Below, piece by piece: positions 1,521 through 64,000 of a stretch of 64,000 nt of DNA. The stretch covers positions 3,736-67,735 of the forward strand of contig CAYZNV010000001.1 in assembly GCA_964480125.1 (NCBI GenBank). Direction: 5' to 3'. How positions within the stretch are numbered: position 1 is the stretch's first letter; every line of letters starts with the position of its first letter. Source of the DNA: an uncultured archaeon. GTDB lineage: Archaea > Iainarchaeota > Iainarchaeia > Iainarchaeales > VGJJ01. The notes under the pieces were generated by a model. It had not been told where the DNA came from, made no database searches, and worked only from the letters and a program-made list of their open reading frames with translations. Made by a program: the position numbers and the translations under genes.

Positions 1521-1708
1521 TGGTGTCTGGCTCTTGAACCAGAACATGCTTCAAGCCCTTTAAATATGTTTCGAGGATTGTCCGGCTCCTACATACCGAG
1601 TATATTAAGCCCCAGCCCAAAAGGGGGGAACAATCGCCGATGAATGGTTCGGCAATCGCCATAGAAATTATTCGCTGCTTGCCGTGCTATTGAACAAAAA
1701 AATGCGCT

Positions 1709-4284: not shown

Positions 4285-4346
4285 GGGGAGTTCCTCGCGA
4301 TAATGAATGGAATAATGAATGAATCTCTAGTCGCTCGTTTATGAAG

Positions 4347-15951: not shown

Positions 15952-15969
15952 GTGATTTCCCCCAATAGG

Positions 15970-16509: not shown

Positions 16510-16606
16510 ACGTTTTACACCAATAATTACGCCAATATAAGGGCAATATTACCCAAAAGTCCCAGAATGGGTTTATATACCCAAACGCCCGCCTCCTCGT
16601 GAGACC

Positions 16607-17590: not shown

Positions 17591-17648
17591 ATTAAGGAAC
17601 AAATAATAACATTCATCTAAGTATTACCTACATCGGAGGCCATACTCT

Positions 17649-18377: not shown

Positions 18378-18381
18378 GAAG

Positions 18382-18591
18382 ATGGAAGCAATGCTCGCCG
18401 GAATCGGAATCATCCTTGTGCTCGCAATAATTGCACTCATTATTTTTCCAATCCTATTGGGAGGAGTGCTATTGTTGGCCATGATTGGAATTATTGTTTT
18501 GGCGATTGGAGTAGCTGCGCACCACCTACTCAAACCCACTCCCAAAATATCCAATCGCAATCCAAAAATAAAAATCAAAGAAGCCAAGTGA
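18382..18591 (+). CDS. Small membrane protein
   Basis: 69 aa. Two hydrophobic helices, basic C-terminus. Starts 4 nt after the AIM24 stop. Confidence 0.35.
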   Translation: MEAMLAGIGIILVLAIIALIIFPILLGGVLLLAMIGIIVLAIGVAAHHLLKPTPKISNRNPKIKIKEAK

Positions 18592-18629
18592 GGCGCGCAC
18601 TCACTTCTTCTTGCATTATTTTTTATCCA

Positions 18630-19625: not shown

Positions 19626-19700
19626 AAAAAGCCCTTTCGGAGCCCATTACCCATTGGGAAGGCACATAAGTTAATATTATCCCCCCTTTATAAATAACCT

Positions 19701-33983: not shown

Positions 33984-34014
33984 TTAAGGGCATTTCCTTG
34001 GATGCATCTAGTGT

Positions 34015-34503
34015 ATGGCCTTTACTTTCCGTCGCACCACGCGCGTTTCATCCAGCGTCGTTACTGCTAATCAGCCGGACGCCTGCCACGTGTTCATGAA
34101 TCACTTGCGCAGAGAATCCAGCGCCACGGGAAACCGACAGGGAATGGGAAAAGCATTGCGGGAAATCTATCGCATCGCGGGAAGACAGTCATTCTTCGAG
34201 CGCTTGCTGAATCGCAATCCCACTATTCGCGTGGGAAACGGAACTATTACCAAATCCCAACTCAAAAAAATAGAACATTTACTTGCGCGCGAGGGATTTG
34301 AAACCACCCTCATGCATATTTCAACGCCACACCCCATGCTCGCGGACTTATTCCAAGACAAAGAACAATACGCCGAGTTCGTTGCCCAAATACCCGAAAA
34401 GAAATGGCAACAAGTATTGGCGCCATTCGTTGCACATCCTAACCAGCAGCTGCGCGCGATGGCATTATTGGTATTCTTGCAGAATGCGCGCGGGACGAAA
34501 TAA
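34015..34503 (+). CDS. Hypothetical protein
   Basis: 162-aa ORF. Only weak evidence. Confidence 0.3.
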   Translation: MAFTFRRTTRVSSSVVTANQPDACHVFMNHLRRESSATGNRQGMGKALREIYRIAGRQSFFERLLNRNPTIRVGNGTITKSQLKKIEHLLAREGFETTLMHISTPHPMLADLFQDKEQYAEFVAQIPEKKWQQVLAPFVAHPNQQLRAMALLVFLQNARGTK

Positions 34504-34535
34504 TTTCAGTATTTACAATACAATCCAAAAAAGCT

Positions 34536-34955
34536 TTATGCTGCGGATTGACCAGTACAATGAAAAATAATTTCTGAATTTTCGACTACTACTGCAGTAT
34601 AACCAACTGTGCCCAACTCTTTATCTTTGAATTTACCTGCAAATAAAACTTGATTAATTTCCCCAAGATACGCACACCCACTTCCGCCACACTCATTACT
34701 GTAATGCTGAAATTTTTTATCATCATGGGATATAACTGACAAGAATGTTTCACTTCCATCTGCTAATATTTTGAACTCATCTGAATTAACTGAACTCAAA
34801 CTTGCCCCAACCCATTCTGTGCACATAAAATCAGTAGTACTAATGTTACTAGCAGGGGATGGCCCAATAGTCACTCCAAAAAACCAAAATAAAAATAATC
34901 CAATACTAAGAAACAAAACTATGATTGACCAGTTTAGTTTAGTTTTTTTAGTCAT
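34536..34955 (-). CDS. Small secreted/anchored Cys-containing protein
   Basis: N-terminal signal anchor IIVLFLSIGLFLFWFFGV. First gene of the secreted island. Confidence 0.45.
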   Translation of the reverse strand: MTKKTKLNWSIIVLFLSIGLFLFWFFGVTIGPSPASNISTTDFMCTEWVGASLSSVNSDEFKILADGSETFLSVISHDDKKFQHYSNECGGSGCAYLGEINQVLFAGKFKDKELGTVGYTAVVVENSEIIFHCTGQSAA

Positions 34956-35008
34956 GCCAATTCACTCCCAACTTGCAAGTGTATGAACTACTGTTAATAA
35001 ACGCAAAA

Positions 35009-35359
35009 TTATCGTAGTATTCCTTGCATTACACCAATAGGTTGAAGTGTGGCCAAATAAAATCCTAGAACAATTAACAAAAAAATGACGACCGGTTTAG
35101 CTTGGCTTTTTCCAAAAATCTTGCTAGAGATCTCAAATAAATTTAAGCCAAGTATCGAACCTAAGCCAATCATTAATCCGCCAATCATATTTACTACAAA
35201 ACTGTCCGCAGAAAAGAAAATTGTGGAATTAGGATTTTGAGCATCACTAATCGTTTGAGAGTACCACCCATAACTAGAATAAATGTAATATATACCAAGA
35301 AGTAAAAGAATGCCAAAAATTATTTTGTATGCAGTGCTATTCGCCATGTAAAACCCCAC
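35009..35359 (-). CDS. Small membrane protein
   Basis: 116 aa, 3 TM helices. The stop overlaps the start region of the metalloprotease gene. Confidence 0.4.
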   Translation of the reverse strand: MGFYMANSTAYKIIFGILLLLGIYYIYSSYGWYSQTISDAQNPNSTIFFSADSFVVNMIGGLMIGLGSILGLNLFEISSKIFGKSQAKPVVIFLLIVLGFYLATLQPIGVMQGILR

Positions 35360-38066
35360 CTAATTGACATATATAATTATTACTCATAATCCGACCAACT
35401 GGTTGCGGTAAAAGAGCATAGCTGGTTGAATAGTTTGAACTTGATACCTCCCCACCAGCATAACCCAAACTATATTGAATAGTAACTAAAAGATGGCTGA
35501 TATCATAAGATAGCACATTATTCTGATTTCTATCAACGATATTAACAACATCTACGTCTTGGAAATATGGAATTGCAAGAGCAAAGTTCCTGTCACTTGT
35601 AACAAGCGAATTGGCTTCAGGTAAAATGGAGCCATTACTATCATGAAGTGGCGCCCCTAAAATTCCAATTGGCGGGCTGTAGTTATAATCATACAAGAGG
35701 TTGCCATCACTTGATTTAAGTTGAATTGAATAATTTGCATCATCCGATTGAGGAATCTCTCCAGCAATACCAGGAACAAGCGATGCAGCCAACACAGTCA
35801 TTTGACCATCCTTTTGCATAATGGAAAGAACGAATGTGTAAAAATCCTTAATGAGTGGAGATGTAGGTGGATAAAAAGTAATGTCGGCTAGTAGCTCATT
35901 TTCATTTACTTGGCCAAATTCATGACGCGGATTGAAATGACTACCCATTAATGTATTGGTATCATACGCTCGATACCAAGAATCGAAATAACAGGGTGAA
36001 AAACAACCTGTGCCTGGAATTGAAGACCATTTTGAACAAACAGGCGATTCAGTACAATTCGCCAATGTACCTGCCGATACGTTCGTAGTGTTACCCGTCC
36101 AATATTCATCCCACAATCCGCCAAAACTATGACCAAACTCGTGACTAAAAACGCGTTGTAACTCATCTATATTATCTGCTATACCAAAACATCCAGCTGT
36201 TCCGCTTCCATTACAGTCTGGATTTGAAAGATTAACATCTACTGGAAAATTACATGTTCCTGCAAATTCACATCCTAATAGTACATAATTCATATGCGTT
36301 CCATTACTTGTAATATTTCGTAAAAAGTCAACTTCTGGGGGCAAACTATACGATCCAAAGCGCGGAGTTAATGAAAGAAGTGAAAATTCATTTCCAAAGG
36401 GACAAACTTCTTTGGCACGGCCATTTACTATTGCATTGTTAAAATGGCCAGAACCGTCTAATTGATAGGCATTGTATTCATCTACCATCCAGACGTTGAA
36501 TTTTGTTTTATTTGATTTAAATGGTTCAAAGGAAAATAGACCATTTTGATCGCTACTGTAATTAATAACATAATTTATTGCGTATTCGAATTGGTTTTTA
36601 TCTTCAAATCCACTTCCAATGAAAACCAAATCAATTTTTTGAGACGGTTCACCGTTATTGATTACTTGTCGACACAGAGTATTATCAGAAAATCTGGGAC
36701 TGTAATATCTGAAATTATCTAATGCGACAACGGAGTAAGTGGAAGTCACATAGATACTGCCGCTCTGGTTTGGAATGATAAAATTAATATCATTCTGGAC
36801 AGGCAAACTCGAGAGCAACCCCCCATAGATTTGAGTATCAGGCGACCCATCGCTGGGATCAAAATAAATCCTGAACGTACAATTAGCTGGATTAAAGTGA
36901 TTACAGCTCTTGTGAATAACGTCAAAGAACATTCTCCCACCATTCATTGTGTAACTTGAACGCAATGAATCGGAAGTCGTAGTACTATCCCCCATTGCCA
37001 CAAAAAAACGACCATCATCCACATACATATGATTGGGGATTTTTTCACGAACAAACTTAACAACGCCACTAGCCACCGTCCAACCACTAGGAGGAGTCTG
37101 AGTATACCCCAGCGTACCACCCATCGTGTAAACTCCGCCATACGTGTCCGGAATAACTCCCTCAAATGAACCGCTTAGAATTGCAGTATGACGATTCACA
37201 TGAACAGTATTTTGACCATACAAATCACGATTGGAAACTCCATCACACGAAACATAATAACTCACATCCCGAGAATCACCGCTAGTAATGTCCAACGAGA
37301 TATTGCCTGTACGATAGATTTCATTCCCAACATAAGAAGTAGAATGCGATAAATTATCTGTTTCATTGAACACCGTGCAAGTAGCCCCAGAGGGATAATT
37401 TACATCAATCGTAAAAGACTCTCCTGCTTCAATATGGTCTACAAAAGGACTAGAATCATTATCAACTAACAAGGGATAACGCTGAAAGCGAAAATTATCC
37501 AACGCGAAATTAACTAACGTAAATGTTCCTCCAGAACGAAATGCCGCAAGCGAGAATCGACCATCAACATTGGGAAAATTGACGTCGTATGTTTGTTTTG
37601 GGCTCGCATTGGTCAACACCAAGACAGTGAATGAATCTGCTTTATTCGCATCTACTGGATTGTAGTTGAGTCTCAGTTGAGAAGTACTATTCCAAAAGCT
37701 GCTATTTCCGATTCCATTCAAATCAAATAATATTCTTCCAGCCCTAAAGATATCGGGGTGAGATAATACGGTGAAGTTATTGCTGGTGGTACTCGTAGTC
37801 CCACACACAAAAATATTTCCGTCAGTTGGATAGCTCCCTGCATTGCGATCAAAATAACGAATGTGTGTGCCACCAACACTTTCACCATCAACCCAAGTCG
37901 AAACCGTTTCACAAAAAGGCTTATTGGAAACCAAACTCCCGCAGCTTTCAGCGCTAGCCGTTGAACATGACTCAAATGAACCATTTGTGATTAATGGATA
38001 TGGCTGGGCAAAAGCACTGGAAGAAAAAATAAAGATGAATAAGAAAAATAACCAATAACCCTTCAT
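35337..38066 (-). CDS. Large secreted zinc metalloprotease (HExxHxxGxxD type; M64/snapalysin-like motif)
   Basis: Signal peptide MKGYWLFFLFIFIFSSSAFAQ. VFSHEFGHSFGGLWDEY zinc-binding motif. 909 aa, rich in N-x-S/T sequons, with predicted beta-rich repeats. Confidence 0.7.
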   Translation of the reverse strand: MKGYWLFFLFIFIFSSSAFAQPYPLITNGSFESCSTASAESCGSLVSNKPFCETVSTWVDGESVGGTHIRYFDRNAGSYPTDGNIFVCGTTSTTSNNFTVLSHPDIFRAGRILFDLNGIGNSSFWNSTSQLRLNYNPVDANKADSFTVLVLTNASPKQTYDVNFPNVDGRFSLAAFRSGGTFTLVNFALDNFRFQRYPLLVDNDSSPFVDHIEAGESFTIDVNYPSGATCTVFNETDNLSHSTSYVGNEIYRTGNISLDITSGDSRDVSYYVSCDGVSNRDLYGQNTVHVNRHTAILSGSFEGVIPDTYGGVYTMGGTLGYTQTPPSGWTVASGVVKFVREKIPNHMYVDDGRFFVAMGDSTTTSDSLRSSYTMNGGRMFFDVIHKSCNHFNPANCTFRIYFDPSDGSPDTQIYGGLLSSLPVQNDINFIIPNQSGSIYVTSTYSVVALDNFRYYSPRFSDNTLCRQVINNGEPSQKIDLVFIGSGFEDKNQFEYAINYVINYSSDQNGLFSFEPFKSNKTKFNVWMVDEYNAYQLDGSGHFNNAIVNGRAKEVCPFGNEFSLLSLTPRFGSYSLPPEVDFLRNITSNGTHMNYVLLGCEFAGTCNFPVDVNLSNPDCNGSGTAGCFGIADNIDELQRVFSHEFGHSFGGLWDEYWTGNTTNVSAGTLANCTESPVCSKWSSIPGTGCFSPCYFDSWYRAYDTNTLMGSHFNPRHEFGQVNENELLADITFYPPTSPLIKDFYTFVLSIMQKDGQMTVLAASLVPGIAGEIPQSDDANYSIQLKSSDGNLLYDYNYSPPIGILGAPLHDSNGSILPEANSLVTSDRNFALAIPYFQDVDVVNIVDRNQNNVLSYDISHLLVTIQYSLGYAGGEVSSSNYSTSYALLPQPVGRIMSNNYICQLGGVLHGE

Positions 38067-40414: not shown

Positions 40415-41899
40415 TCACCCACCAAAGAAACTATTCAAGGACGTCTGCTTCTTTTTTTGAGTGGATTCTTCTTTTTCTTCCATTGCTGCGGCGATTGACT
40501 CTTTTGCGCCTGCTTTTATGCGCTTGGATTTTGTTTTGGATTCAGATTCTGTTTCCACTGCAAGCGGAATAGAAGAAGTAACGTCTTCGCTTGCCGTGTG
40601 AGCGCGGATTTCCCCTCCGCGATGCGCACGCGGAGCAAGACGTTCTTTTAATTCTGCAACCTTGAGCATGAATTTTTTTATTCTAACAGAATCCGCGCTC
40701 GTGTCGAACAAATACGCCATATCATCTTCGTCCAACTCATAATACGCTGCAACGGATTCAGCGAATGCAGGATTTTCCACTAACATCTCCCAATACCCCA
40801 TTTCTTTTCCCCAGCGAGACTTGGAAGAATGAGACTTTTCAGCAATCTTTGTAACGATTACCTTTTTCTGCGAATCCCGCTTCATCGCGAGCTGCTTTAG
40901 AATAGTGGGAAACTGATAGGGAATGAAACCATGCGCACGCTCGCTTGTTTTGAGGCCAACGGTTGAGACTAACTCCCCGGAATAGCGCAAAAAACCATAA
41001 TGCTGTCTTCTAAAAATACGCCCATCAAAGATATCCCCACGCGAAAGCTGATCGAATGCAATGGCTTGCGATTCGAGCTGTGGAAACTGACGCGGAATAT
41101 TTTCTTCTACCCATTTTTTCATCAAATCATGATCCATATCCAACGTAAAGCGCGCGCGACGGATTTCGGAAAGCGAAGTAGAGGTGTAAAGGGTTCGAAT
41201 GACGTTGAAGATATTATCTACACGCTCGCGATAGCCGCTGCGCTCCACATCTTCCAACGTGAGCTTCTTTCCCTTGTTGGAGAGCGTCTCCAAATCCATC
41301 AGGGCCGCACGACAATCCCCTCCGGAGTTTTTAGCAAGTAATTGGATGGAACGCGCATCATAATCAATGCCTTCCTTATCCGCAATATCTCCTAACCACT
41401 TTCCAATGCTGGGAAAAGGAACTTTTTTGAATTGCACAATCTTAGCAAAACTTCTTACGCTTGCGAGCTTCTTGTCCGCATAAATGTCGTTCGCCGTGAG
41501 GATGAGTGGGTTCTGCGCGTGGCGCATGATTTCGAGCAACGCGGAAAGGCCTCCCTTGTCTTCTCTTCCATGAATGGCGTCAATCTCATCAATCAACACC
41601 AATCGACGCTTGCCATCAAAGCCACTATTGTATGCTGCGCCTGCGATTGATTTCTCCATAGACTCTTTATCGCGCACGTCCGAGGCATTGAACTCTACGA
41701 GGGTCCAACCGAATTCTTTCGCACACGCATACGCAGTAGCGGTTTTTCCCACTCCGGGAGCGCCCGCGAGAAGAAGGGGCTTCTGGTTCTTTCCCTGCTG
41801 CCAGGCCTGCGCCCACATGCGCACTTCCGCGATGCAGTCGGAATTCCCAATGACTTCCTGCAGGGAAGAAGGAACATACTTGTCGATGAACATAGGCAT
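40415..41899 (-). CDS. rfcL: Replication factor C large subunit (RfcL) with C-terminal PIP box
   Basis: AAA+ Walker A GAPGVGKT. LVLIDEID Walker B. C-terminal Q-T-S-L-N-S-F-F fits the PCNA-interacting-peptide consensus. Confidence 0.85.
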   Translation of the reverse strand: MPMFIDKYVPSSLQEVIGNSDCIAEVRMWAQAWQQGKNQKPLLLAGAPGVGKTATAYACAKEFGWTLVEFNASDVRDKESMEKSIAGAAYNSGFDGKRRLVLIDEIDAIHGREDKGGLSALLEIMRHAQNPLILTANDIYADKKLASVRSFAKIVQFKKVPFPSIGKWLGDIADKEGIDYDARSIQLLAKNSGGDCRAALMDLETLSNKGKKLTLEDVERSGYRERVDNIFNVIRTLYTSTSLSEIRRARFTLDMDHDLMKKWVEENIPRQFPQLESQAIAFDQLSRGDIFDGRIFRRQHYGFLRYSGELVSTVGLKTSERAHGFIPYQFPTILKQLAMKRDSQKKVIVTKIAEKSHSSKSRWGKEMGYWEMLVENPAFAESVAAYYELDEDDMAYLFDTSADSVRIKKFMLKVAELKERLAPRAHRGGEIRAHTASEDVTSSIPLAVETESESKTKSKRIKAGAKESIAAAMEEKEESTQKKKQTSLNSFFGG

Positions 41900-46183: not shown

Positions 46184-47302
46184 TTACTTCAACGCATCCT
46201 CGGGAAGCAAAACAGTAATATTTTTGGTGCGGCCCCTTCCTGAAGTGTCGGTTTCGGTGCGGAGCAATTTCTTTACTTCTAATTCAACGACAATCTCTCT
46301 CACTCTTCTATCGCTCAACTCAAAACCCATTCGAGCCATTTGCCCATACAACGCGTTCGAGGGAATGTTTTTCCCACCGAGCTTGAAGAGAGCCTGCAAG
46401 ACTTGCTTCTGGGGAATCTGCAAGAAAGGAACGGCACGCATCACCGCAATCACTTCACGGTCCTCAAATGCCTCTTTCGCGTGCTCCACTTCAATTTTAT
46501 TCGCGTTCTTGCGCTCGGCAATCTTACCGGCTTTCAGCAGGGCATCCAATCCCTTCCGACAATCTCCCCCATGCTTGGCCGCGTGGCCGGCAATAAGAGA
46601 AATAATATCCTCCGAAATCGCATCCGGGTGCATCGCCATCTTCGCACGTTCGCGAAGGATATCCTTCAATTGTGGCGGCGCATATTGTGGAAATTCCACC
46701 GCCTCATGAGAAAAAGAACTACGAACGCGATCATCGAGCTTGCTAGGGATGCTAGTGTCATTGGAAATGAGAATAATAGGAATGGCCTTCCTCCCATGCT
46801 CGGGCAAGCGAAGCAAATCATACAATAACTCATTCCCATCATTCGCGAGCAGCTGATCGAACTCATCAAACACTAAAACAGGAACAAACGAAGCAAACTT
46901 CATCCCTTCCAATACTTTCGCATACAACTCATTCGTGCTCATTCCCCGCGCAGGAACGGGGCGCTCAACGACACGCGTTAACTCCGCAAGAACGGCTTGG
47001 CGAGAATTCAGGGCAAAACAATTAATGTAAACCGGCTTCACGCGCGCAGAAAAATCCTTCAACTGCTGCATCACAAACTTCAGCGTGACCGTCTTTCCCG
47101 TGCCAGGGGGACCAAACACAAAAACGTGCGAGGCATTCCCTCCCTCTGCAAGGGGCTTCAGCGCATATACGAGGGTTTGGATCTGCGTATCGCGGTGGGG
47201 AAGCACCTCGGGGAGATATTCGGGAGAGAGGGCCCGCTCATCCTTGAAAATAGCATGCTCCTTGGAAGCGCGCGCAAACACATTATCCTTCATCATGCAC
47301 AT
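46184..47302 (-). CDS. orc1: Orc1/Cdc6 replication initiator
   Basis: Walker [16 protein letters not shown] Walker B. C-terminal winged helix ...GRGRTKNITV. Confidence 0.9.
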   Translation of the reverse strand: MCMMKDNVFARASKEHAIFKDERALSPEYLPEVLPHRDTQIQTLVYALKPLAEGGNASHVFVFGPPGTGKTVTLKFVMQQLKDFSARVKPVYINCFALNSRQAVLAELTRVVERPVPARGMSTNELYAKVLEGMKFASFVPVLVFDEFDQLLANDGNELLYDLLRLPEHGRKAIPIILISNDTSIPSKLDDRVRSSFSHEAVEFPQYAPPQLKDILRERAKMAMHPDAISEDIISLIAGHAAKHGGDCRKGLDALLKAGKIAERKNANKIEVEHAKEAFEDREVIAVMRAVPFLQIPQKQVLQALFKLGGKNIPSNALYGQMARMGFELSDRRVREIVVELEVKKLLRTETDTSGRGRTKNITVLLPEDALK

Positions 47303-47813: not shown

Positions 47814-48002
47814 TTATTTTTTGCGCTTATTCTGCAATAACTCTCTTTCCCCAAACATCAAAATAAAGAAAATAGTAATCACGCTCAAACCCGTTGAGAA
47901 ATAGTGCAAGGGCAAGCGAAACGTCGTGAAAATAACCGCCCACCCAAAAAGAATAGCAATCGTAATGAGTGCGGCCCGCATCGCGGCATGGAGTTTCTGC
48001 AT
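47814..48002 (-). CDS. Small 2-TM membrane protein (doubtful)
   Basis: MQKLHAAMRAALITIAILFGWAVIF... inner start of a longer track ORF that otherwise overlaps the neighbouring gene. Confidence 0.25.
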   Translation of the reverse strand: MQKLHAAMRAALITIAILFGWAVIFTTFRLPLHYFSTGLSVITIFFILMFGERELLQNKRKK

Positions 48003-48087
48003 AGGTGGAAAGAACAAAAGGGGGAATAAAAGCTTTCTCAAAAAATTCTCCCTAGGTTTAAAGCCGTTCTGGGAAAAACAAAGAAGC

Positions 48088-48666
48088 ATGCGCGGGTTCG
48101 TTTCATTCGTGTTGCTCGTGTTAATCGCAAGCGTGGGAATCAGCCAATACGCCCTACAATCCACGCATCACGCCCCTCTAACAAAGGGAATAGAAATACA
48201 ATCTCTCGCAGCCCAGCGAAGCCAACTTGAACAAGGAATGGATCGCATCATCACCGAAGAACTACGCACAGGGATGCAACAACAATTACCCTCCGAGCAA
48301 ATCAAAACCCACATCAATAGCGCGCTCGCACTTTACCTCTACGAGCAGCAGCAACACATCTCACTTCCTATGCGCATGCAAGCAGGATTTGCAACGATGC
48401 AAACCACCCATTATCTTTCACTTGCACAAGCGCCATTACAACCCCTTTCAACCCAAACCCTCAACGCGTACTCGCATGTGTTTGTTCTTCCATTGAATCA
48501 AACCCAGCAGTATGGAGAATATACCTACACCGGAGGCGCGTTTGGCACAAACATTTTGCTGGCAAAACTCACCACAGCCGAAAGCGCAACCATTGCGGCA
48601 TTACCGAGCGGGTATCGCATTTGCGTGCTTGATGCAATCGGAGAAGTCCCCTGCGTTGCAGGATAA
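48088..48666 (+). CDS. Class III signal peptide (type IV pilin-like) protein
   Basis: MRG-FVSFVLLVLIASVGI: charged N-terminus, Gly, then a hydrophobic stretch. Start chosen at 48088 inside the longer track ORF. Confidence 0.4.
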   Translation: MRGFVSFVLLVLIASVGISQYALQSTHHAPLTKGIEIQSLAAQRSQLEQGMDRIITEELRTGMQQQLPSEQIKTHINSALALYLYEQQQHISLPMRMQAGFATMQTTHYLSLAQAPLQPLSTQTLNAYSHVFVLPLNQTQQYGEYTYTGGAFGTNILLAKLTTAESATIAALPSGYRICVLDAIGEVPCVAG

Positions 48667-48677
48667 GAGGAAAAAAA

Positions 48678-48956
48678 ATGCACACGCTCGAAACCATCCT
48701 CTGCGCATTGGCACTCATGGCTTGTTTAGGATTACTCGCAGAACCCATTCTTTCCCACCAAGCAAAACTCACTCAAGCGAAAAATGCAATGGAATCACGC
48801 TATGAAGCACTCCAGTGCAGCGCGGAATGGGATTATGCACTCGCGTCATTTGTGCAAACAACAACAGGAGGATGTAGCGATTATTCCTATGCCCTGCACG
48901 CGAATGGAAACCCATTCACCACCCTAATGGGAGGAGACTCCAACCACTATGAATAG
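48678..48956 (+). CDS. Small hydrophobic-N-terminus protein, possibly pilin-like
   Basis: MHTLETILCALALMACLGLLA. Confidence 0.3.
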   Translation: MHTLETILCALALMACLGLLAEPILSHQAKLTQAKNAMESRYEALQCSAEWDYALASFVQTTTGGCSDYSYALHANGNPFTTLMGGDSNHYE

Positions 48957-49434
48957 TCACATTCACAAAAACGAACAACGAGGACAATTCCACGCGCTTG
49001 AAATTATCCTCGTATTCTTGGGATGGATGATATTACTTGCTGGAGTATGGAGTAGTAGCACCACCATCCTTCACCAGCAAGAAAATCAATTCCTCCAAGA
49101 AAAAGCATTCGCACGCGCCCAAGCCCAAGCACACACGCTTATCGAGCAGCATCATACGAATCCCTGGAACGGGTGTGCATTATTTGATCATGCAAAGAAA
49201 CGCACGCGCGGACATATTATCGAAAAAACATGCATGCAAGAACTTACCCCCACTACTCCCACGCAAGGCGTACGCGAAGTATATGTGCGAACGCAAACGG
49301 GAAAAGAAATATTCTTCGCCGTGTCCACCATATCGCCCACACAAGAAGAAAATTGCGCCGCAATTGAACGAATTATACGCATCCACGAAACGAATGAGAT
49401 TGCATTGCTGGGAGTGATCAGCTGTGCCGAATGA
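48949..49434 (+). CDS. Class III signal peptide (pilin-like) protein
   Basis: ...EQRGQFHALEIILVFLGWMILLAGV. Confidence 0.4.
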   Translation: MNSHIHKNEQRGQFHALEIILVFLGWMILLAGVWSSSTTILHQQENQFLQEKAFARAQAQAHTLIEQHHTNPWNGCALFDHAKKRTRGHIIEKTCMQELTPTTPTQGVREVYVRTQTGKEIFFAVSTISPTQEENCAAIERIIRIHETNEIALLGVISCAE

Positions 49435-49741
49435 AAAAGGAATATTCTGGGCATTCGAATTAGGAATAGGACTACTCATCCTGAGCACGCTCTTCATTGC
49501 ACAACCCACCCAAACGCCATCGCACGCAGCAGAGCTCGCAGGCCAATTATGCCTTGATTTGCAGGAAATGTGGATGCAAGGAGAAGAGCTTGAAGCTGTC
49601 ATCCAATCCTATTTCCCTGAAAAAAACATCACCATCTCACCAGGGGCAATTTCGAGCATGGAGAACAATGCCGCTATGTGCGAGGCCACGCGCGTGCGCA
49701 ATGGGATTGTGGAAAAACAATTCATTGCGATTGAATGGTAA
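49424..49741 (+). CDS. Class III signal peptide (pilin-like) protein
   Basis: MPNEKGIFWAFELGIGLLILSTLFIA. Confidence 0.4.
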   Translation: MPNEKGIFWAFELGIGLLILSTLFIAQPTQTPSHAAELAGQLCLDLQEMWMQGEELEAVIQSYFPEKNITISPGAISSMENNAAMCEATRVRNGIVEKQFIAIEW

Positions 49742-50129
49742 TCCCATTTTCTGCGCGGGTGATGATGAGAGAAGAAAATGAGGGATTCAGCGAAGTGGAA
49801 ATAGGAATAGGGCTTTTGGCGATGAATATTTTTGGAGCAAGAAATGAAGCGTGTGTCAATTGCAATTCCAAGTCATTCCCACTAACGGAAAACTCATTGC
49901 TTGCGCTGCTGCTCCATTTGTAGATTATTTTACTCCCAGGGGCTTGGAAGGAAAGAGAATGAAAAATTGATTCGAGCTGCTGCGCATGAGATTTCAATTC
50001 CAACACTTGCTCTTGCAACGCATACGCTTGCATGAGATTGGAAAACGCAGGCGTGAATAAGGCCAGCGCCCCCGCGAGCGCAGCCCAAATCAACAAACTC
50101 TCCAATGACACTTGGCCTTGATTATTCAT
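49722..50129 (-). CDS. Archaeal type IV pilin (DUF361/Pilin_N-like)
   Basis: MNNQGQVSLESLLIWAALAGALALF matches the archetypal [KQ]GQ[VI]S[LI]E class III signal peptide. Confidence 0.6.
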   Translation of the reverse strand: MNNQGQVSLESLLIWAALAGALALFTPAFSNLMQAYALQEQVLELKSHAQQLESIFHSLSFQAPGSKIIYKWSSSASNEFSVSGNDLELQLTHASFLAPKIFIAKSPIPISTSLNPSFSSLIITRAENGITIQSQ

Positions 50130-50131
50130 GG

Positions 50132-50308
50132 TTACTCGATCTGATCAATCTTCGCAAAAACATCCTGTGTTTTCTGCTCGAGCTTCTGCACGCCGCTCGC
50201 GGAAGAAGACTGGAGTTGCGTGACCAACAACAATACCACTGCCACTACTGCCGCCATCACAATAATCAACTCAATCGAAATCTGAGCCTTTGAGTCCAAT
50301 CTACGCAT
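50132..50308 (-). CDS. Small archaeal type IV pilin (58 aa)
   Basis: MRRLDSKAQISIELIIVMAAVVAVVLLLV. Start chosen at MRRLD. Confidence 0.55.
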   Translation of the reverse strand: MRRLDSKAQISIELIIVMAAVVAVVLLLVTQLQSSSASGVQKLEQKTQDVFAKIDQIE

Positions 50309-50433
50309 GCAACACCACTCCTTCCCACAAAGGAAATAATGGCGAAGTGCGCCCAAAAATGCTTTAAAGCTAGGGAAAATTTTTCAAAAAAGAAGCCATT
50401 TGGCGTTCCACTCAAGGGGGATTTATAGGGATT

Positions 50434-51024
50434 TTGGCATTCTCTCATGAGATGAACAACCGCGAATTAACCGACCTATTGACGAGCTGGATCACCCTCT
50501 CAGCCGCATTTGCATTTGTATTCTCGGGAAGCGGATTCAACCTCACAGGGTTCCTCCCCGCGCTCGCGATTGCAGCTATTGCCGTGGGAACGGGCTTTTT
50601 ACTCCACGAATTGGCACACAAATATGTTGCGATTCATTTTGGAGCCAAAGCCGAATTCCGAGCATGGAATATGGGACTGCTTTTCGCACTCGCGGTTGCA
50701 ATATTTGCACGATTTATTTTCGCCGCACCCGGAGCCGTTTACATTTATGGAAAGCATGTGACGCAAAAAGAAAATGGGATTATCTCCGTTGCCGGGCCTG
50801 CCATGAATATCATTATTGGAATTATCGGAATCATCATTGGAGGCATTTATGCCACGAGCCAAATAGGACTCGTAGCGCAAATCGTGGGAAGCATCAACCT
50901 CTACTTAGCGTTCTTCAATTTACTCCCATTCTTCATCCTCGACGGAGCAAAAGTATTCGCGTGGAACAAAGTAGTGTGGGCCGTGCTATTCATCCCCTTG
51001 CTGGGATACTTGTTCTTTTTCTGA
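50434..51024 (+). CDS. Site-2-protease-like M50-family intramembrane metalloprotease
   Basis: HELAH inside a TM helix (LLHELAHKYVA). Polytopic. A second motif region GPAMN..IG. Confidence 0.55.
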   Translation: MAFSHEMNNRELTDLLTSWITLSAAFAFVFSGSGFNLTGFLPALAIAAIAVGTGFLLHELAHKYVAIHFGAKAEFRAWNMGLLFALAVAIFARFIFAAPGAVYIYGKHVTQKENGIISVAGPAMNIIIGIIGIIIGGIYATSQIGLVAQIVGSINLYLAFFNLLPFFILDGAKVFAWNKVVWAVLFIPLLGYLFFF

Positions 51025-59399: not shown

Positions 59400-59467
59400 A
59401 CTCTCCACTAAGAATGGGGCTTTTAATATGCATATCGGCATGCATAGGCAATAGCCTGGGAAATACT

Positions 59468-60880
59468 ATGTGTTCCATCATCGCAATCCATTCAACAAAA
59501 CCCATTCCAAGCAGCGAAATCATTCATTACGCCCAACGCCTGCGCCACCGCGGACCGGATGGGATTGGATTCGCAGGGGAAACACTCCAATGCTTTTCAC
59601 GCACCTATGAAAGCACAGCGCTAAAAAATCTCAGCACCACCTCGCCATGGTGGATCGCCAATGGGCTGCTGTCCCTCACGGGAAAAGGAAGCCCCCCCTA
59701 CACTCGCGCAACGCACAAAGGAAATATCACGCTAGCACACAATGGAGAAATATACAATTACCACGAGCTCGCCAAGAAATACTCCATCCCCATTTCAAAG
59801 GACAGCTCGGACGCGGAATTGCTATGCGCGCTCATCGCAAAATGGAGCGAAAAACAACCCATTGCTCAAATTGCCACACGACTCCAGCAGGAAGTACGTG
59901 GGAGTTATGCGCTGGCGATTCAATTCCAAGAAAAAACATATGCATTCCGCGATGCACTGGGAAAAAAACCCATTTGGGTAGCGGAAGAAAAAAATAAAAT
60001 CATATTTTCCTCAGAACCCATTCATCCACGTGCGTTTTTGCTTCCTCCCACTCAACTCGCAACCGCGCAAAAGGGAAAATTACACCTCACTCCAATTATT
60101 CCCCATAAAAAAATCACCTCACACTCACTCGCACAGGAATGGAAGGAAAGCATGGCGCTTCGCACGAATGGGAAGCAGCGCATCGCCGTCAGCTTTTCAG
60201 GAGGAATCGATTCCGCGCTTGTCGCTTATACTGCCAAGCAACTCGGAAAAAAAGTCATTGGAATCGGCGTCGGAATCAAGGGAAGCCATGATGAAATCCA
60301 AGCCCGAAAAGCCGCAAAAGAAATTGGAATCACACTCAAGTGGAAAACACTCACAACAAAAACAATCCACCAACTAGCCAAAGAAGTGACGCACATCCTG
60401 CAGACGCAAGACCAGCTCCAGCAGCGCATTGGCATTGTCAATGCGGCAACCGCCCACTATGCGCACCAACTGGGATTCCGCTTCTTGCTCTCTGGAACGG
60501 GAGCCGATGAACTCTTTTGTGGGTATGGGGAGTTTGAACGCATGCGAGGAGAAAAAAAAGAAATCAACAAATTACGAGAAAAACGCATGCACGAAATGTG
60601 GAAACAAAATCTTTGGAGAGAAGACGCATGCACTATGCGATTTGGCGTAGAGCTACGCACCCCCTACTTGGACCAATCATTCGTAGCTGCTGCGCTTGCA
60701 ATCCCTGCGTGGGAGAATTTAGAAGGAGAAAATGGAACGCTACGCAAGAACGCACTCCGCCGCCTCGCAATCACAGAGGGATTACCCAGAGAAATAGCGA
60801 TGCAACCCAAGAAAGCCATGCAATATGGAAGTGGTGTCGCAAAGGTAATGGAAAAAAACATTACGTCAAAACATGACTGA
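59468..60880 (+). CDS. asnB: Asparagine synthetase (glutamine-hydrolysing), AsnB family
   Basis: N-terminal Met-Cys (MCSIIAIHS) Ntn amidotransferase domain. SFSGGIDSALVA PP-loop. Confidence 0.8.
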   Translation: MCSIIAIHSTKPIPSSEIIHYAQRLRHRGPDGIGFAGETLQCFSRTYESTALKNLSTTSPWWIANGLLSLTGKGSPPYTRATHKGNITLAHNGEIYNYHELAKKYSIPISKDSSDAELLCALIAKWSEKQPIAQIATRLQQEVRGSYALAIQFQEKTYAFRDALGKKPIWVAEEKNKIIFSSEPIHPRAFLLPPTQLATAQKGKLHLTPIIPHKKITSHSLAQEWKESMALRTNGKQRIAVSFSGGIDSALVAYTAKQLGKKVIGIGVGIKGSHDEIQARKAAKEIGITLKWKTLTTKTIHQLAKEVTHILQTQDQLQQRIGIVNAATAHYAHQLGFRFLLSGTGADELFCGYGEFERMRGEKKEINKLREKRMHEMWKQNLWREDACTMRFGVELRTPYLDQSFVAAALAIPAWENLEGENGTLRKNALRRLAITEGLPREIAMQPKKAMQYGSGVAKVMEKNITSKHD

Positions 60881-61466
60881 CTTCCACAATAGAAGGGGAA
60901 GGAATATTATCACTCACCATCACACGGCATGAAGAAGAAGGCGCATCCCAACTCAGCACAATCAGCTTATTCAGTGTAAAAGGAAAAGCCAATTGATGCA
61001 ACCTTCCATTACTCGCTTGCTTGGAACACGTGAGCGAGACCAATACATCCTGCCCTGAGATGACATCCCCATACGGCGCACAAGCAGAACCACACGCACT
61101 ACTTTCAAGGGAAGGAGAAATAATGGCTTGGCAATTCACATCCAACTGCTGCTGGAGAAAGAGATTCACATCATTCCAGCGCAACCCCACTGCCGCGGAG
61201 AAATCCGCGCCCACAGGACCATTCGGACACGTTGCAGCGGAAAAAGGACCACTCATCTGCACATCCATCGCTTCCGCAATCGCATCCGAGGCAAATTGAG
61301 AATACGCCTGCCGTGCGAGTGACCACTCCTTGGAAAGAGACTGCTGCACAATCAACGAGCGCATCGACTCCTGCTCTGAAATCACTTGGCTCTGCTGCGC
61401 ATAGAAGATGGCAATCAACAGAATGACCGCCATCCCCACTACAACGGTAGAAAAAAAGCCCCTCAT
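60861..61466 (-). CDS. Class III signal peptide (pilin-like) protein
   Basis: MRGFFSTVVVGMAVILLIAIF. Cys-rich C-terminal domain. Confidence 0.4.
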   Translation of the reverse strand: MRGFFSTVVVGMAVILLIAIFYAQQSQVISEQESMRSLIVQQSLSKEWSLARQAYSQFASDAIAEAMDVQMSGPFSAATCPNGPVGADFSAAVGLRWNDVNLFLQQQLDVNCQAIISPSLESSACGSACAPYGDVISGQDVLVSLTCSKQASNGRLHQLAFPFTLNKLIVLSWDAPSSSCRVMVSDNIPSPSIVEVSHVLT

Positions 61467-61771
61467 GGCATCGCCTCGCAGGATTGTAATATAGACCAAC
61501 TACTTGGAAGAGAAGGAAGTTGGAGTGAAGTAGAAGAAACACGCTCGAATACAGAGGCACACGCAAACGCGCCCGCCGTGGAAGGAATCGGAGGAGTTGC
61601 TCCTCCCCCAAAGACACGCATCAACGCAGCATCCCGCGCATGCATCGAAAGCACGGCATCCGCGGAAGAAGGGCTCGAAGACTGCTGCAGGGCGAAACCA
61701 ATCAACACCAGCGCAGCCATAATCGCCGTGGCGGCAAACACCATGTCCAACGAAAAAATAAAACCCCGCAT
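61463..61771 (-). CDS. Class III signal peptide (pilin-like) protein
   Basis: MRGFIFSLDMVFAATAIMAALVLIG. Confidence 0.4.
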   Translation of the reverse strand: MRGFIFSLDMVFAATAIMAALVLIGFALQQSSSPSSADAVLSMHARDAALMRVFGGGATPPIPSTAGAFACASVFERVSSTSLQLPSLPSSWSILQSCEAMP

Positions 61772-62325
61772 TAGGAATCCCTCCACACGGAAATGCGAAC
61801 GGACTGGATATTGTTGGGACACCCATTCACAAAGCAACTCGAAATCATCCCCGCGCTCGGATTCGAAGCAAAAATGAGCATATTGCGATCCACCGAAGCA
61901 AACGCCTTATTCGCAGGAACCTGTTGCCCTGAAGGAAGCACGAATGGGGGATTAGAGAATGCAATGAGAAAACCATACCCAGCAGGAATGCCCAATCCAG
62001 AAGAAGAAATGGAATAATTTTTGGAGGAATCAAACCACGCGCAGTTTTCCACCCAGGAAATATCATTATGCGCCGCCCATTCAGCAGGAGCGCAGCGCAG
62101 GTTCACTACTCCAACGCCATCGCTCGCGGAAAGAATGGGGTTACTCACCAGCGCATTCGAGGCCAGCAAGCTCATCGCATGCAACTCCGCGGTCTCACGC
62201 GATTGATGCTGTGAGGAAATCCATAACTCGGATTGACCCAAAAGAAGGCCGAGCACCAATGTGAAAAGAACCGCCCCTAGGATAATGTCAAGAGAAAATA
62301 ATTGCCCGCGCTGCGAAGCCATCAT
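61771..62325 (-). CDS. Class III signal peptide (pilin-like) protein
   Basis: MMASQRGQLFSLDIILGAVLFTLVLG. Confidence 0.45.
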   Translation of the reverse strand: MMASQRGQLFSLDIILGAVLFTLVLGLLLGQSELWISSQHQSRETAELHAMSLLASNALVSNPILSASDGVGVVNLRCAPAEWAAHNDISWVENCAWFDSSKNYSISSSGLGIPAGYGFLIAFSNPPFVLPSGQQVPANKAFASVDRNMLIFASNPSAGMISSCFVNGCPNNIQSVRISVWRDS

Positions 62326-62828
62326 GGAACCACGCTCACGGGGAGATCACACGAATCCAATACCACTCGCGACGGAGACGCAGGAATGGTTTGAGGGACA
62401 AATGCGGGAAAGGAAAGAGGAAGAAAAACAGGAAATGAAACCACTACATCACGAGAAAAAGAGGTCTCGGCAGAAGAAAGAGACAACACCACATTCGCAT
62501 CCGCACTCGCGAGCGAACGCTCAAGCGAGGGAATACACGACAAGGATTGTTCTTGTCCAAAGCTACGCGGGGAAAATAACTCCTCTTGACTCGCAAAAAA
62601 AGCAAATGGACGATAGGCTGCTTGAGCAGGAGCCGGGGGAAAATACCACCCTGCCTGCGTGAGCAAAAAAGAAACACTACGCGCGTTCGCATGCAATTGG
62701 GATTGTGTTGTGAGCAATCCCTGCGATGACATGAAACGCGATTGCACGGAAGAAAAGACCGCCAGCACCGTGAGAAGAAAAACAATGGCCAGCACCATAT
62801 CCATCCCACTCTGTCCACGCGCGCGCAT
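62322..62828 (-). CDS. Class III signal peptide (pilin-like) protein
   Basis: MRARGQSGMDMVLAIVFLLTVLAVF. Confidence 0.4.
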   Translation of the reverse strand: MRARGQSGMDMVLAIVFLLTVLAVFSSVQSRFMSSQGLLTTQSQLHANARSVSFLLTQAGWYFPPAPAQAAYRPFAFFASQEELFSPRSFGQEQSLSCIPSLERSLASADANVVLSLSSAETSFSRDVVVSFPVFLPLSFPAFVPQTIPASPSRVVLDSCDLPVSVVP

Positions 62829-62865
62829 GCATAGGTGCAAGGAAGAGCCGTATTTAATGCTGATT

Positions 62866-63246
62866 TCAGACGAGGCGCAAGGGAATACGCTTCCCCTTTG
62901 CGTTGAACGCGCGCACGCTAGATGGAGTATAAGGATACGCCAGGATGAGATGGAACTCCCCCATCCGAGAAAAAGTCATCAAATCCTGGGAAGAAGGATA
63001 GGGAGAAGGAGTGGGATGCGAGTGCACCGTACCCACAATCAATGGATCAAAGGGAATCAACTCCGAGTGGAGCGCAGCATAGTCTCTTCCTGAAATCGCG
63101 GGAATCACCACTACCTCTCCCACCACCAAACTATCCCTTTCGAGCGTGGAAAGAAGCGCAATAAATTCATTCGGGTGCGCACGCTTCGAGGCGTGCAACA
63201 AATCCTTCAACAGGATGGAGGAAATCATCCATTCTTTTTGGGGCAT
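62866..63246 (-). CDS. Minimal JAMM/MPN+ zinc metalloprotease (desampylase/deubiquitinase-like)
   Basis: GEVVVIPA... then VHSHPTPSPYPSSQD gives an exact HxH-x7-S-x2-D. About 126 aa, as in stand-alone archaeal JAMMs. Start set at MPQKEW to avoid a 165-nt overlap. Confidence 0.6.
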   Translation of the reverse strand: MPQKEWMISSILLKDLLHASKRAHPNEFIALLSTLERDSLVVGEVVVIPAISGRDYAALHSELIPFDPLIVGTVHSHPTPSPYPSSQDLMTFSRMGEFHLILAYPYTPSSVRAFNAKGKRIPLRLV

Positions 63247-63263
63247 ACCACACGCTACACCGC

Positions 63264-63995
63264 TCAAGAATAAAACCACACAATAGGGGGAATCAACACC
63301 AACAACCCCAGCGAGGGAAAAACACCCCATTCGTGCGCGGCACGCGACCACGCCAGGGCCGCAACCACCAGCAATAGCGTGGAAGCACTCCCCAAAAAAA
63401 TGAGCGCCACCACATGCAAGAAAGACCAAAAAGAAAGAGGAAGAGAAAAAGAAAACAACGGAAGCAATTGCTCAAATCCCCACGCCATAAACACCCCACT
63501 TACGATGACCAAAAAAATTTCATTCCAACCCAGCGCAGTACTCGATAACAATTCTGCCGGAACGCTCCGGATTTTACCCGAGAGAGCCACATAGCCCAAA
63601 CTAAAAATAAGATTAGCAATCCCCATGAAAGGAGAAAAGTGCGGCGAACCCCACCATACTCCCATTAATCCCGGACCCAACCCCGGAAGAATCCCAAGAA
63701 TCACCCCCACCACACTTTCACGCAGTGGATGCAATTCCTCTGCGGCGTGGGGTTGTCTTTGCTCCACGCTTGAAAAGCCAAATAATCCCAACAGCAACGC
63801 CGGAAGCGCAAGAGGGATCGCCCACACATGCAAGGAAAACCACCCCAACACTAGTGCTAACACCCCACACCCAATCACTAGGATGCGCGCCCTACCCCCG
63901 TGTGAAGAAAAGAACAACACCCATAGCACAGCCACCACCAACAGCGGGGCAATGATTCCTTCTACCAAAAACAAAAACGGTAAAGCCCATTCCAC
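63264..63995 (-). CDS. Polytopic membrane protein (7-8 TM) containing no Asp residues
   Basis: 243 aa, hydrophobic throughout. Immediately upstream of the JAMM gene and the four-pilin run. Confidence 0.45.
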   Translation of the reverse strand: MEWALPFLFLVEGIIAPLLVVAVLWVLFFSSHGGRARILVIGCGVLALVLGWFSLHVWAIPLALPALLLGLFGFSSVEQRQPHAAEELHPLRESVVGVILGILPGLGPGLMGVWWGSPHFSPFMGIANLIFSLGYVALSGKIRSVPAELLSSTALGWNEIFLVIVSGVFMAWGFEQLLPLFSFSLPLSFWSFLHVVALIFLGSASTLLLVVAALAWSRAAHEWGVFPSLGLLVLIPPIVWFYS

Positions 63996-64000
63996 TAAAC

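Follow-up and report, generated by a model that had tools for sequence, protein, structure and literature searches.

Six minus strand genes of an Iainarchaeota contig end a predicted Epd-like type IV pilus operon that also encodes an OB-fold/TctA-like pair and a JAMM protease

Why is the gene of a JAMM metalloprotease found between a polytopic membrane protein and a row of pilin-like genes in an uncultured member of the Iainarchaeota, and what could such a locus be for? The genes in question are six co-directional open reading frames (ORFs) on the minus strand. They fill the last 3.2 kb of a 64,000 nt stretch of contig CAYZNV010000001.1 (assembly GCA_964480125.1, positions 3,736 to 67,735), and this whole stretch is hereafter called the window. 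In brief, they encode the C-terminal part of a membrane protein, here called TM327, the JAMM protease, and four pilin-like proteins, pA, pB, pC and pD (Table 1). An earlier note, made from the letters of the window, had listed the same six ORFs, and a re-check of the coordinates placed all of them as described there. We suggest, with a probability of roughly 55%, that the genes belong to a one-operon, Epd-like DNA-uptake (competence-type) pilus in which the JAMM protease is a passenger.

The window ends inside the operon. An exact-protein look-up of the 184 aa ORF, pB, found a 9.2 kb contig (L001) whose alignment with the window end has 2 mismatches over 3,200 nt and which reaches 4.1 kb further. 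The window edge truncates the membrane protein gene, which is full-length on L001 (327 aa, positions 3893-4876). The true start of TM327 is located approximately 247 nt past position 64000, and the GTG that appears as a start in the window is an internal Val codon. The earlier note had described a 243 aa membrane protein without aspartate; the Asp count is indeed zero in both the window ORF and the full-length protein, but the length was that of a truncated gene. The note had also reported that no pilus ATPase or platform gene was present. This holds for the window, which contains no ATPase, TadC or A24 peptidase gene, but these genes are located 1.6-4 kb past the window end, with the ATPase and the platform directly upstream in the same operon (L001 and the genome CP064981.1). 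The missing pilus machinery is a window-edge artefact.

On L001, the same-strand genes upstream of TM327 are the end of a T2SSF gene, three mini-pilin genes, a prepilin peptidase gene, two larger pilin-like genes and a gene for an OB-fold protein. The mini-pilins are 56-58 aa long, carry the class III signals RGQ, RAQ and KAQ, and match Pfam Class_IIIsignal down to E 9e-8. The prepilin peptidase has 376 aa, the Peptidase_A24 and Arc_PepC domains, and both Asp motifs (DFKSRIIPD and GGDVKL).

The complete genome of a Candidatus Iainarchaeum (CP064981.1, locus L007) contains the whole operon, with the T2SSE ATPase and two T2SSF genes first, and the operon end abuts, as in the window, a convergent asnB. 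Between the window and this genome, the JAMM is 81%, TM327 65% and pB 69% identical. The operon starts with a T2SSE-type ATPase, two TadC/T2SSF proteins, three mini-pilins and an EppA-type prepilin peptidase (A24 plus Arc_PepC). These are followed by two larger pilins, the OB-fold protein with a single transmembrane (TM) helix, the TctA-like protein (here TM327), the JAMM and the four pilin-like genes. The six window genes are the distal third of this approximately 16-gene type IV pilus operon, which is found in Iainarchaeota and related DPANN archaea. The 16-gene order recurs in loci L009, L011/12, L017, L018 and L021, with ATPases 63-78% identical to that of L007 and a membrane protein that goes down to 37% identity with that of the window lineage. 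In a sister version of the operon (L022, L024, L026, L033, L049-51 and L064), a Pfam TctA protein stands where TM327 would be, after the OB gene and before the JAMM.

Some copies of the operon carry additional elements. The pilus ATPase of L009 (1340-4675) contains an intein with a LAGLIDADG domain, as does the topoisomerase I of the same locus (15854-19747), and the long T2SSE-matching ORFs of L018 and L021 may also be intein-bearing. In L022, a PMT_2-like glycosyltransferase with 9 TM helices (8265-9995; such proteins have 576-586 aa) is inserted between TctA and the JAMM. Glycosyltransferases of this type are also found beside TctA, and convergent to it, in two metagenome contigs (L060 and L061).

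Clade 1 archaeal type IV pili are characterized by two TadC proteins, an EppA peptidase and major pilins of approximately 70 aa (Makarova et al. 2016, PMC4858521). The operon content in L007, L009 and other loci agrees with this description: an ATPase, two TadC proteins, an EppA-type peptidase and short major pilins with Gln at +1. By gene content, we assign the machinery to the Epd-like, clade 1 type IV pili. It shares with the Epd pilus (EpdJ ATPase, EpdK/L TadC, EppA, a short major pilin and several minor pilins) a single secretion ATPase, a pair of TadC-like proteins, an A24 peptidase that carries the archaeal C-terminal domain, mini-pilins with Gln at +1 and a length of approximately 57 aa, and five or more additional pilin-like genes. 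The two also differ in several respects. The Iainarchaeal genes form one operon, in which neither a DUF2341 adhesin nor FleN/MinD was seen, whereas the Epd genes are spread over several loci. The four distal pilin families have no match to a curated model, and an OB/TctA-like pair and a JAMM, with or without a mutase, are added. The host is a DPANN archaeon, outside the clade 1 lineages of the 2016 survey, which were class I methanogens and Thermococci only (PMC4858521). The accessible parts of the text and supplements of that survey contain no mention of JAB, JAMM, MPN or TctA.

In all versions of the operon, the gene before the TctA-like gene encodes a 100-130 aa protein that combines a single N-terminal TM helix with an OB fold. 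On L001 this protein has 103-119 aa and weak OB-fold matches. The OB protein of L022 matches PF01336 with E 2.5e-8, and that of the window lineage matches only below threshold. A profile built from 17 OB proteins gave marginal matches in the PDB (E 0.002-0.05), all of them to nucleic-acid-binding OB folds (ExoVII XseA, AspRS, RPA32 and AIM2 HIN). We considered a split ComEC composed of the OB protein and TM327. The matches to DUF4131, the N-terminal OB domain of ComEC, were sub-threshold (E 0.0018-0.16), and no Competence (PF03772) or Lactamase_B match was found in any scanned operon protein. The idea was dropped and replaced by homology to TctA.

In the sister operons, the protein between the OB gene and the JAMM has approximately 395 aa and 10 TM helices, and matches Pfam TctA (PF01970) with E 4e-46 and 1e-38. 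A profile of 19 TM327 sequences aligned by hhalign to the operon TctA proteins with 96.5% probability, E 1e-9, over 261 of 334 columns. The two families share the central motifs P-G-x-G and G-K-x-R-[ST]. Because of this alignment and the shared operon slot, we regard TM327 as a shortened, divergent TctA/DUF112-like protein by predicted homology. The N-terminal TctA motifs GxxPGxHxNT and HTFxDFxPS are lost in TM327; its first approximately 70 residues are unaligned and only a degenerate 'RLGLPHLIP' is left. Clustered at 50%, the TM327 family has only 20 representatives, none with a Pfam domain, in a set of 1.84 billion proteins. AlphaFold modelling of six members reached a predicted local distance difference test score (pLDDT) of 55, too low for a fold search. 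The CPBP, rhomboid and archaeosortase families had been put forward as candidates for the membrane protein, and none of them was matched. The protein was also correctly set apart from PibD/FlaK-type peptidases: with zero Asp and no A24 match, TM327 is not an A24 prepilin peptidase, and the real peptidase is encoded by a separate upstream gene. Pairs of OB and TctA genes also occur outside pilus operons, on low-GC metagenome contigs (L053-L059) that probably stem from other DPANN lineages; two examples are listed in Table 1.

A function for this pair is suggested by the genetics of Methanococcus maripaludis, where natural transformation has been found to require both an OB/TctA-like pair and genes of the Epd pilus, namely epdJKL, eppA and several epd pilin genes, all of them essential (PMC10133366). 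In Methanoculleus thermophilus, too, a TctA-like homologue is essential, and Fonseca et al. put forward the TctA-like protein as the so far missing DNA transporter of archaea (PMC10133366). The pair of strain JJ, MMJJ_13020/13030, resembles that of the operon in its order, OB gene first, in the single N-terminal TM helix followed by an OB fold, in a TctA-like partner with approximately 10-11 TM helices (11 in MMJJ), and in its functional link to an Epd-type pilus. The pair forms a separate two-gene operon in M. maripaludis, whereas here it is inside the pilus operon, and the window copy, cut down to 327 aa and devoid of Asp, escapes recognition by Pfam.

We favor the DNA-uptake reading because the DPANN operon holds the same three functional blocks as the M. 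maripaludis transformation genes. Based on homology to the M. maripaludis system, with matching Pfam family, architecture and gene order, a role in DNA uptake is most likely. DNA captured by the pilus would be bound by the OB domain on the outer side of the membrane and then handed through by the TctA-like protein. As in the bacterial competence machinery, a type IV filament is combined with a membrane-anchored extracytoplasmic nucleic-acid-binding domain and a polytopic channel candidate. The operon differs from that machinery in having no PF03772 domain, metallo-beta-lactamase domain or helix-hairpin-helix ComEA, and its channel candidate is of the unrelated TctA family, so that the parallel is an analogy, not membership.

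Several points count against DNA uptake. TM327 and its family have no Pfam, NCBIfam or PDB sequence match (window form, full-length protein and, for Pfam, ten members), and a TM327 without the N-terminal TctA motifs and without Asp may have changed or lost the ancestral activity. The comparison with MMJJ_13020/13030 is one of Pfam family, architecture and gene order, not of direct sequence orthology. It should be noted that DNA transport by the TctA-like protein is a hypothesis in the source paper itself (PMC10133366).

A rival reading is a pilus that serves adhesion to a host or surface, as one would expect of a DPANN symbiont, with the OB and TctA-like pair as a co-located solute transporter of the TTT (tripartite tricarboxylate transporter) type and no DNA uptake. 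Type IV pili are generally reported in DPANN genomes (PMC8561730), TctA of bacteria transports carboxylates (discussed in PMC10133366), the pair is also found away from pilus genes, and TM327 has lost conserved TctA motifs. However, archaea lack TctB and TctC, the partner has an OB fold of the nucleic-acid type, and both genes are, together with the Epd pilus, genetically required for transformation of M. maripaludis (PMC10133366). The pair is embedded mid-operon across deep divergence, including the JAMM-less locus L065, which argues for a shared function. An adhesion pilus without DNA uptake is thus possible but rather unlikely in our view, and it should be added that DNA uptake and adhesion are not mutually exclusive. 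A literature search found no description of this DPANN combination, and nothing on TctA-like proteins and transformation beyond the M. maripaludis study. What is new here is that an Epd-like pilus operon has taken up an OB/TctA-like pair and an AfJAMM-type protease, to which relatives add a phosphoglycerate mutase.

The 126 aa JAMM/MPN+ protein, for which the earlier note claimed a textbook motif, matches Pfam Prok-JAB (PF14464) with E 2.6e-13 and 50.3 bits (cut-off 25 bits). The motif is composed of E27 and H75-S-H77-PTPSPYP-S85-SQ-D88, and E27, H75, H77, S85 and D88 are invariant in 11 homologues. The protein matches AfJAMM/AF2198 (PDB 1oi0, 1r5x) over the full length with E 2e-29; it is of similar size and all Zn-ligand and catalytic residues are present. 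The NCBIfam model of the haloarchaeal, HvJAMM1-type desampylases (NF041370) gave 16.9 bits and its cut-off of 130 bits was not reached. No similarity to the RadC family was found with Pfam, and the JAMM orthologues at related loci had no predicted TM segment. The JAMM, a predicted cytosolic Zn isopeptidase, appears to be orthologous to AfJAMM, the physiological substrate of which is not established (PMC300881).

The neighbours of the JAMM family were mapped at 36 loci, using one genome per species. The JAMM gene is located directly after the TctA-like gene of a pilus operon in Iainarchaeota, in a metagenome-assembled genome (MAG) labelled Micrarchaeota and in unclassified archaeal MAGs. Conservation of the JAMM-pilin adjacency in relatives had been set beforehand as a test, and the operon position is conserved in approximately 16 distinct loci. 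In five related MAGs (L013-16 and L019), the JAMM gene is located after ispG and is turned towards a different pilus operon at a distance of 0.7-1.5 kb. Unlike the copies in pilus operons, those of Archaeoglobaceae are found beside SAMP2 or metabolic genes. In two Archaeoglobaceae MAGs, the JAMM gene is directly preceded by a SAMP2 gene (PF21965, E 2.7e-18; Table 1), an arrangement that may hint at the natural substrate of AfJAMM-type proteases. The contexts are unrelated in other Archaeoglobaceae, Methanobacteria, Methanomassiliicoccaceae and others. A pilus linkage in Methanobacterium (L031/L032), where a T2SSF gene and a mini-pilin gene are approximately 5 kb from the JAMM, was rejected, as six unrelated genes intervene.

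A second survey, a metagenome scan, was anchored on TctA and not on the JAMM. Five of the six pilus-embedded TctA loci with downstream sequence contain a JAMM. In the most divergent locus, L065, with an ATPase 53% identical to that of L007, the OB-TctA genes are directly followed by four pilin genes and no JAMM is present. None of approximately ten non-pilus OB-TctA loci contains a JAMM. In most TctA-type operons, a phosphoglycerate mutase gene is located 3' of the JAMM gene with a 4-nt overlap; the window lineage has no mutase there. We observed two different mutase families in this one operon slot, GpmI (iPGM_N) in six loci and ApgM (PF10143) in two (Table 1). A neighbour-joining tree of the JAMM proteins, made without bootstrap and indicative only, groups them by taxon, with the ispG-linked DPANN copies nested inside the embedded clade.

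Based on these observations, we suggest that the JAMM is probably a housekeeping protease of the ubiquitin-like (Ubl)/SAMP type, a passenger and not a component of the pilus. The reasons are its homology to AfJAMM, the SAMP2 adjacency, the unrelated contexts elsewhere, the JAMM-less L065 and the mutases in the slot, together with a conservation stronger than that of its neighbours, a tree that follows taxon, and the absence of a JAMM from the 25 M. maripaludis transformation genes (PMC10133366). The JAMM would have been trapped between two pilus sub-operons, in many relatives along with the phosphoglycerate mutase. In this scenario there was one ancestral insertion, of JAMM and mutase, at the junction of the machinery and minor-pilin sub-operons, and the JAMM was then retained since rearrangement at the junction would break the operon. 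A single ancestral insertion of this kind accounts for all JAMM data.

Other observations speak against a mere passenger. The JAMM is kept across ATPase divergence down to 58% identity (in the five of six loci that were found independently of it), the gap between the TctA-like gene and the JAMM is a tight 0-40 nt, and a second Iainarchaeal clade again has the JAMM near a different pilus operon. Retention, tight spacing and this second pilus-adjacent arrangement exceed what one would expect of a random passenger. In addition, SAMP2-like ORFs and an E1 were sought in the window and the examined loci, and only the two Archaeoglobaceae SAMP2 genes were found. The E1 probe was an approximate E. coli MoeB sequence and the search covered loci, not whole genomes, so that this result is uninformative for Iainarchaeota.

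The JAMM could instead be a dedicated accessory of the pilus or DNA-uptake machine. Its target might be a cytosolic part of the ATPase, the platform or the TctA-like complex, from which it would take off a Ubl modification or which it would process, or it might act on incoming material. For the latter there is a parallel in RadC, a JAB-domain protein that belongs to bacterial competence regulons; the JAMM has no RadC-family similarity in Pfam. The slot directly after the TctA-like gene, occupied in approximately 16 loci and in five of six found through TctA, the 0-40 nt gaps, and the MAGs with the JAMM beside another pilus operon agree with a dedicated role, as does the single AfJAMM-type locus that the scan patterns used recovered from the Iainarchaeum genome. 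On the other hand, the JAMM family is not pilus-specific, L065 does without it, and glycolytic mutases are equally 'conserved' in the slot. One ancestral insertion can explain all embedded cases, neither a beta-grasp domain nor a C-terminal GG occurs in the operon proteins, and the M. maripaludis screen did not include a JAMM (PMC10133366). We regard a dedicated accessory role as improbable. The suggestion in the earlier note that the JAMM processes or regulates filament subunits found no positive support, the protein being a cytosolic AfJAMM homologue of a family with non-pilus contexts, absent from L065, sharing its slot with mutases, and followed by what appears to be a separate promoter of the four pilin genes. 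It is likewise doubtful that an AfJAMM-type protease is an unrecognised component of an archaeal DNA-uptake pilus that acts jointly with the OB/TctA-like translocon, for example by removing a Ubl-type modification or a blocking peptide from a cytosolic part of the machine.

The four distal genes were described in the earlier note as pilin-like, and this is borne out by a conserved [KR]G motif, a chain of profile alignments and the operon context. Their N-termini are MRARGQSGMDMV, MMASQRGQLFSLD, MRGFIFSLD and MRGFFSTV, and each continues with approximately 20 hydrophobic residues. All four ORFs have a short basic leader with [KR]-[GA] followed by a hydrophobic helix of approximately 20 residues. 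An N-terminus scan for [KR][GA] plus a hydrophobic stretch, across the 637 open frames of at least 50 codons in the window, gave eight distinct sites: pA to pD in a row, two plausible pilin genes at 49-50 kb and two sites inside large genes. The scan also gave one out-of-frame shadow match. The [KR][GA] N-terminus is rare in the window, and four consecutive cases are therefore far beyond chance. K/R at -2 and G/A at -1 are kept in all four orthologue families, down to approximately 25-35% identity. The mature ends of the orthologues read [KR]G-Q-x-x-x-D for pA, Q-x-x-S-x-D for pB and [KR]G-[FYI]-x-F-[ST]-x-D for pC, and in pB G7-QLFSLD is invariant across six homologues. No pD orthologue has an acidic residue at +5/+6, and pD itself has none near the N-terminus.

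Profile alignments made by hhalign link the Class_IIIsignal-positive mini-pilins to pD in a chain: mini-pilins to p133 96%, p133 to p190 92%, p190 to pA 89%, pA to pB 95%, pB to pC 91% and pC to pD 74%; hydrophobic helices can inflate these scores. An AlphaFold model of pB (pLDDT 80) has an N-terminal helix of 50 residues followed by a beta domain, with no significant fold match in the PDB. The assembly genes co-encoded with pA to pD are the peptidase (Peptidase_A24 plus Arc_PepC), the T2SSE ATPase and two T2SSF proteins (L001 and L007). A point against pilins is that Pfam (PF04021 Class_IIIsignal and PF07790) and NCBIfam gave nothing at or above the curated cut-offs for pA to pD and ten orthologues from three other lineages, and recognition of their class III signals by curated models was thus not obtained. 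The sole pilin-related match was a sub-threshold one of pA to DUF7287 (E 0.018).

Because of the motif, its conservation, the profile-profile links, the predicted architecture and the operon context, we conclude, on indirect but consistent support, that pA to pD are a predicted minor-pilin set. Cleavage after [KR]G would be the work of the EppA-like peptidase of the operon, and the four proteins probably assemble into a priming or tip complex. In bacteria, GspK-type subunits have no conserved acidic residue near the mature N-terminus, and the acid-free pD may cap the complex in a GspK-like manner. As in GspH-I-J-K and FimU-PilV-W-X, four consecutive, translationally coupled minor pilin genes end with an acid-free member; unlike in these sets, Asp at +5/+6 takes the place of Glu at +5, no sequence or fold similarity is detectable, and the role is inferred. 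That pA to pD are instead ordinary N-terminally anchored membrane or pseudo-periplasmic proteins, with a signal-anchor after Arg-Gly by coincidence, would fit the lack of Pfam and NCBIfam class III or pilin matches and an approximate form of the FlaFind pattern, which they would fail at +2/+3 (Phe or Gly there), but is very unlikely given the very short leaders with -2 K/R and -1 G/A kept in four families to approximately 25% identity, the Gln/Phe +1 and Asp +5/+6 conserved in pA to pC only (pD has neither), the profile-profile ties to the Class_IIIsignal pilins of the operon, its dedicated A24 peptidase, the resemblance of a four-gene set with an acid-free last member to bacterial minor-pilin sets, and the rarity of the motif elsewhere in the window.

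The JAMM gene starts 17 nt past the stop codon of TM327, and pA to pD are joined by the start/stop overlaps ATGA, TAATG and ATGA. The sequence CATTAAA(A/T)(A/G)C is conserved 19-22 nt before the ATG of pA in the window and in L007, L009, L011, L017, L018 and L021, while the surrounding intergenic sequence differs between these loci. The same spacing of box to ATG is found at three other starts of long ORFs in the window. The TATA-like box at this site looks like a candidate promoter of a leaderless four-gene pilin transcript, and pA to pD would be transcribed from their own leaderless promoter just downstream of the JAMM. A second element, TTTTATTC, is formed by the W-F-Y-S codons, which are invariant at the C-terminal end of the TctA-like gene (window 63246-63290, minus strand). 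In the window and L007 it precedes the JAMM ATG by 20-21 nt and could be a TATA-like box within coding sequence. As a promoter of the JAMM gene it was left tentative, its placement being inconsistent in other, more distant loci.

Table 1. Positions of the genes and elements discussed; window positions are given unless a locus is named.
Feature	Position	Strand	Description
TM327, C-terminal part	63264..64000 (ORF called as 63264-63995)	-	243 codons of the 327 aa polytopic membrane protein
JAMM	62866..63246	-	126 aa, cytosolic JAMM/MPN+ metalloprotease, close AfJAMM (AF2198) homologue
TATA-like box TTAAATA	62851..62857	-	22 nt upstream of the pA ATG
pA	62322..62828	-	pilin-like, 168 aa; N-terminus MRARG/QSGMDMV; Gln +1, Asp +5
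pB	61771..62325	-	pilin-like, 184 aa; MMASQRG/QLFSLD; Gln +1, Asp +6; 4-nt overlap with pA
pC	61463..61771	-	pilin-like, 102 aa; MRG/FIFSLD; Phe +1, Asp +6; 1-nt overlap with pB
pD	60861..61466	-	pilin-like, 201 aa; MRG/FFSTVVV; last operon gene; 4-nt overlap with pC
asnB	59414-60880	+	convergent; the 3' end of pD shares 20 nt with it
Second cluster	47926-48666	+	internal MRGFVSFVLLV
Second cluster	48678-48956	+	
Second cluster	48949-49434	+	QRGQFHALEIIL
Second cluster	49424-49741	+	EKGIFWAFELG
Second cluster	49722-50129	-	NQGQVSLESLL
Second cluster	50132-50356	-	SKAQISIELII; Class_IIIsignal E 4e-4
SAMP2 gene	L020:9670-9882		ends ISGG; immediately upstream of AfJAMM-type homologue
SAMP2 gene	L023:9679-9882		ends ISGG; immediately upstream of AfJAMM-type homologue
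Mutase	L022:10360-11865		GpmI (iPGM_N) type
Mutase	L024:7957-9474		GpmI (iPGM_N) type
Mutase	L026:10345-11871		GpmI (iPGM_N) type
Mutase	L033:10363-end		GpmI (iPGM_N) type
Mutase	L049:9582-end		GpmI (iPGM_N) type
Mutase	L064:2208-3722		GpmI (iPGM_N) type
Mutase	L050:1895-2989		ApgM (PF10143) type
Mutase	L051:9569-10846		ApgM (PF10143) type
OB + TctA pair	L053:176-493 + 526-1683		outside pilus operons
OB + TctA pair	L056:7679-8005 + 8001-9182		outside pilus operons

The window contains a second cluster of approximately six pilin-like genes, at 47926-50356 (both strands; Table 1) and 50434-51024 (plus strand), beside a Peptidase_M50 gene. An M50 peptidase was also among the hits of the M. maripaludis transformation screen, as was a stand-alone class III signal gene (PMC10133366). 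Further away, the region 34000-38066 has a low GC content (0.39 against approximately 0.48) and contains a 909 aa ORF (35337-38066, minus strand) with a weak Peptidase_M64 match, which is followed by three ORFs without a family match; it may be an acquired surface-protein island. A Cdc6/Orc1 gene (46184-47302) and a gene for an RFC-like AAA+ protein (40415-41899) are both encoded on the minus strand, and a replication origin may be located near 47.3-47.9 kb, a stretch without long ORFs. Rfam and tRNA scans of the window gave no matches.

The only candidate for the DNA transporter of naturally competent archaea is the TctA-like protein with its OB-fold partner, from transposon genetics in M. 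maripaludis (PMC10133366). Throughout a deep DPANN clade, Epd-type pilus operons enclose an OB/TctA pair or its Asp-free derivative, which is independent genomic evidence for cooperation of pilus and translocon. The operon offers a compact list of candidates: four uncharacterised minor-pilin families, a degenerate TctA variant and a JAMM. If the JAMM were a component of DNA uptake after all, its operon position would reveal a long-unknown physiological role, the first function of the AfJAMM family. For the organisms themselves, our findings suggest that the genome-reduced Iainarchaeota and Micrarchaeota may carry a DNA-uptake machine encoded in one operon.

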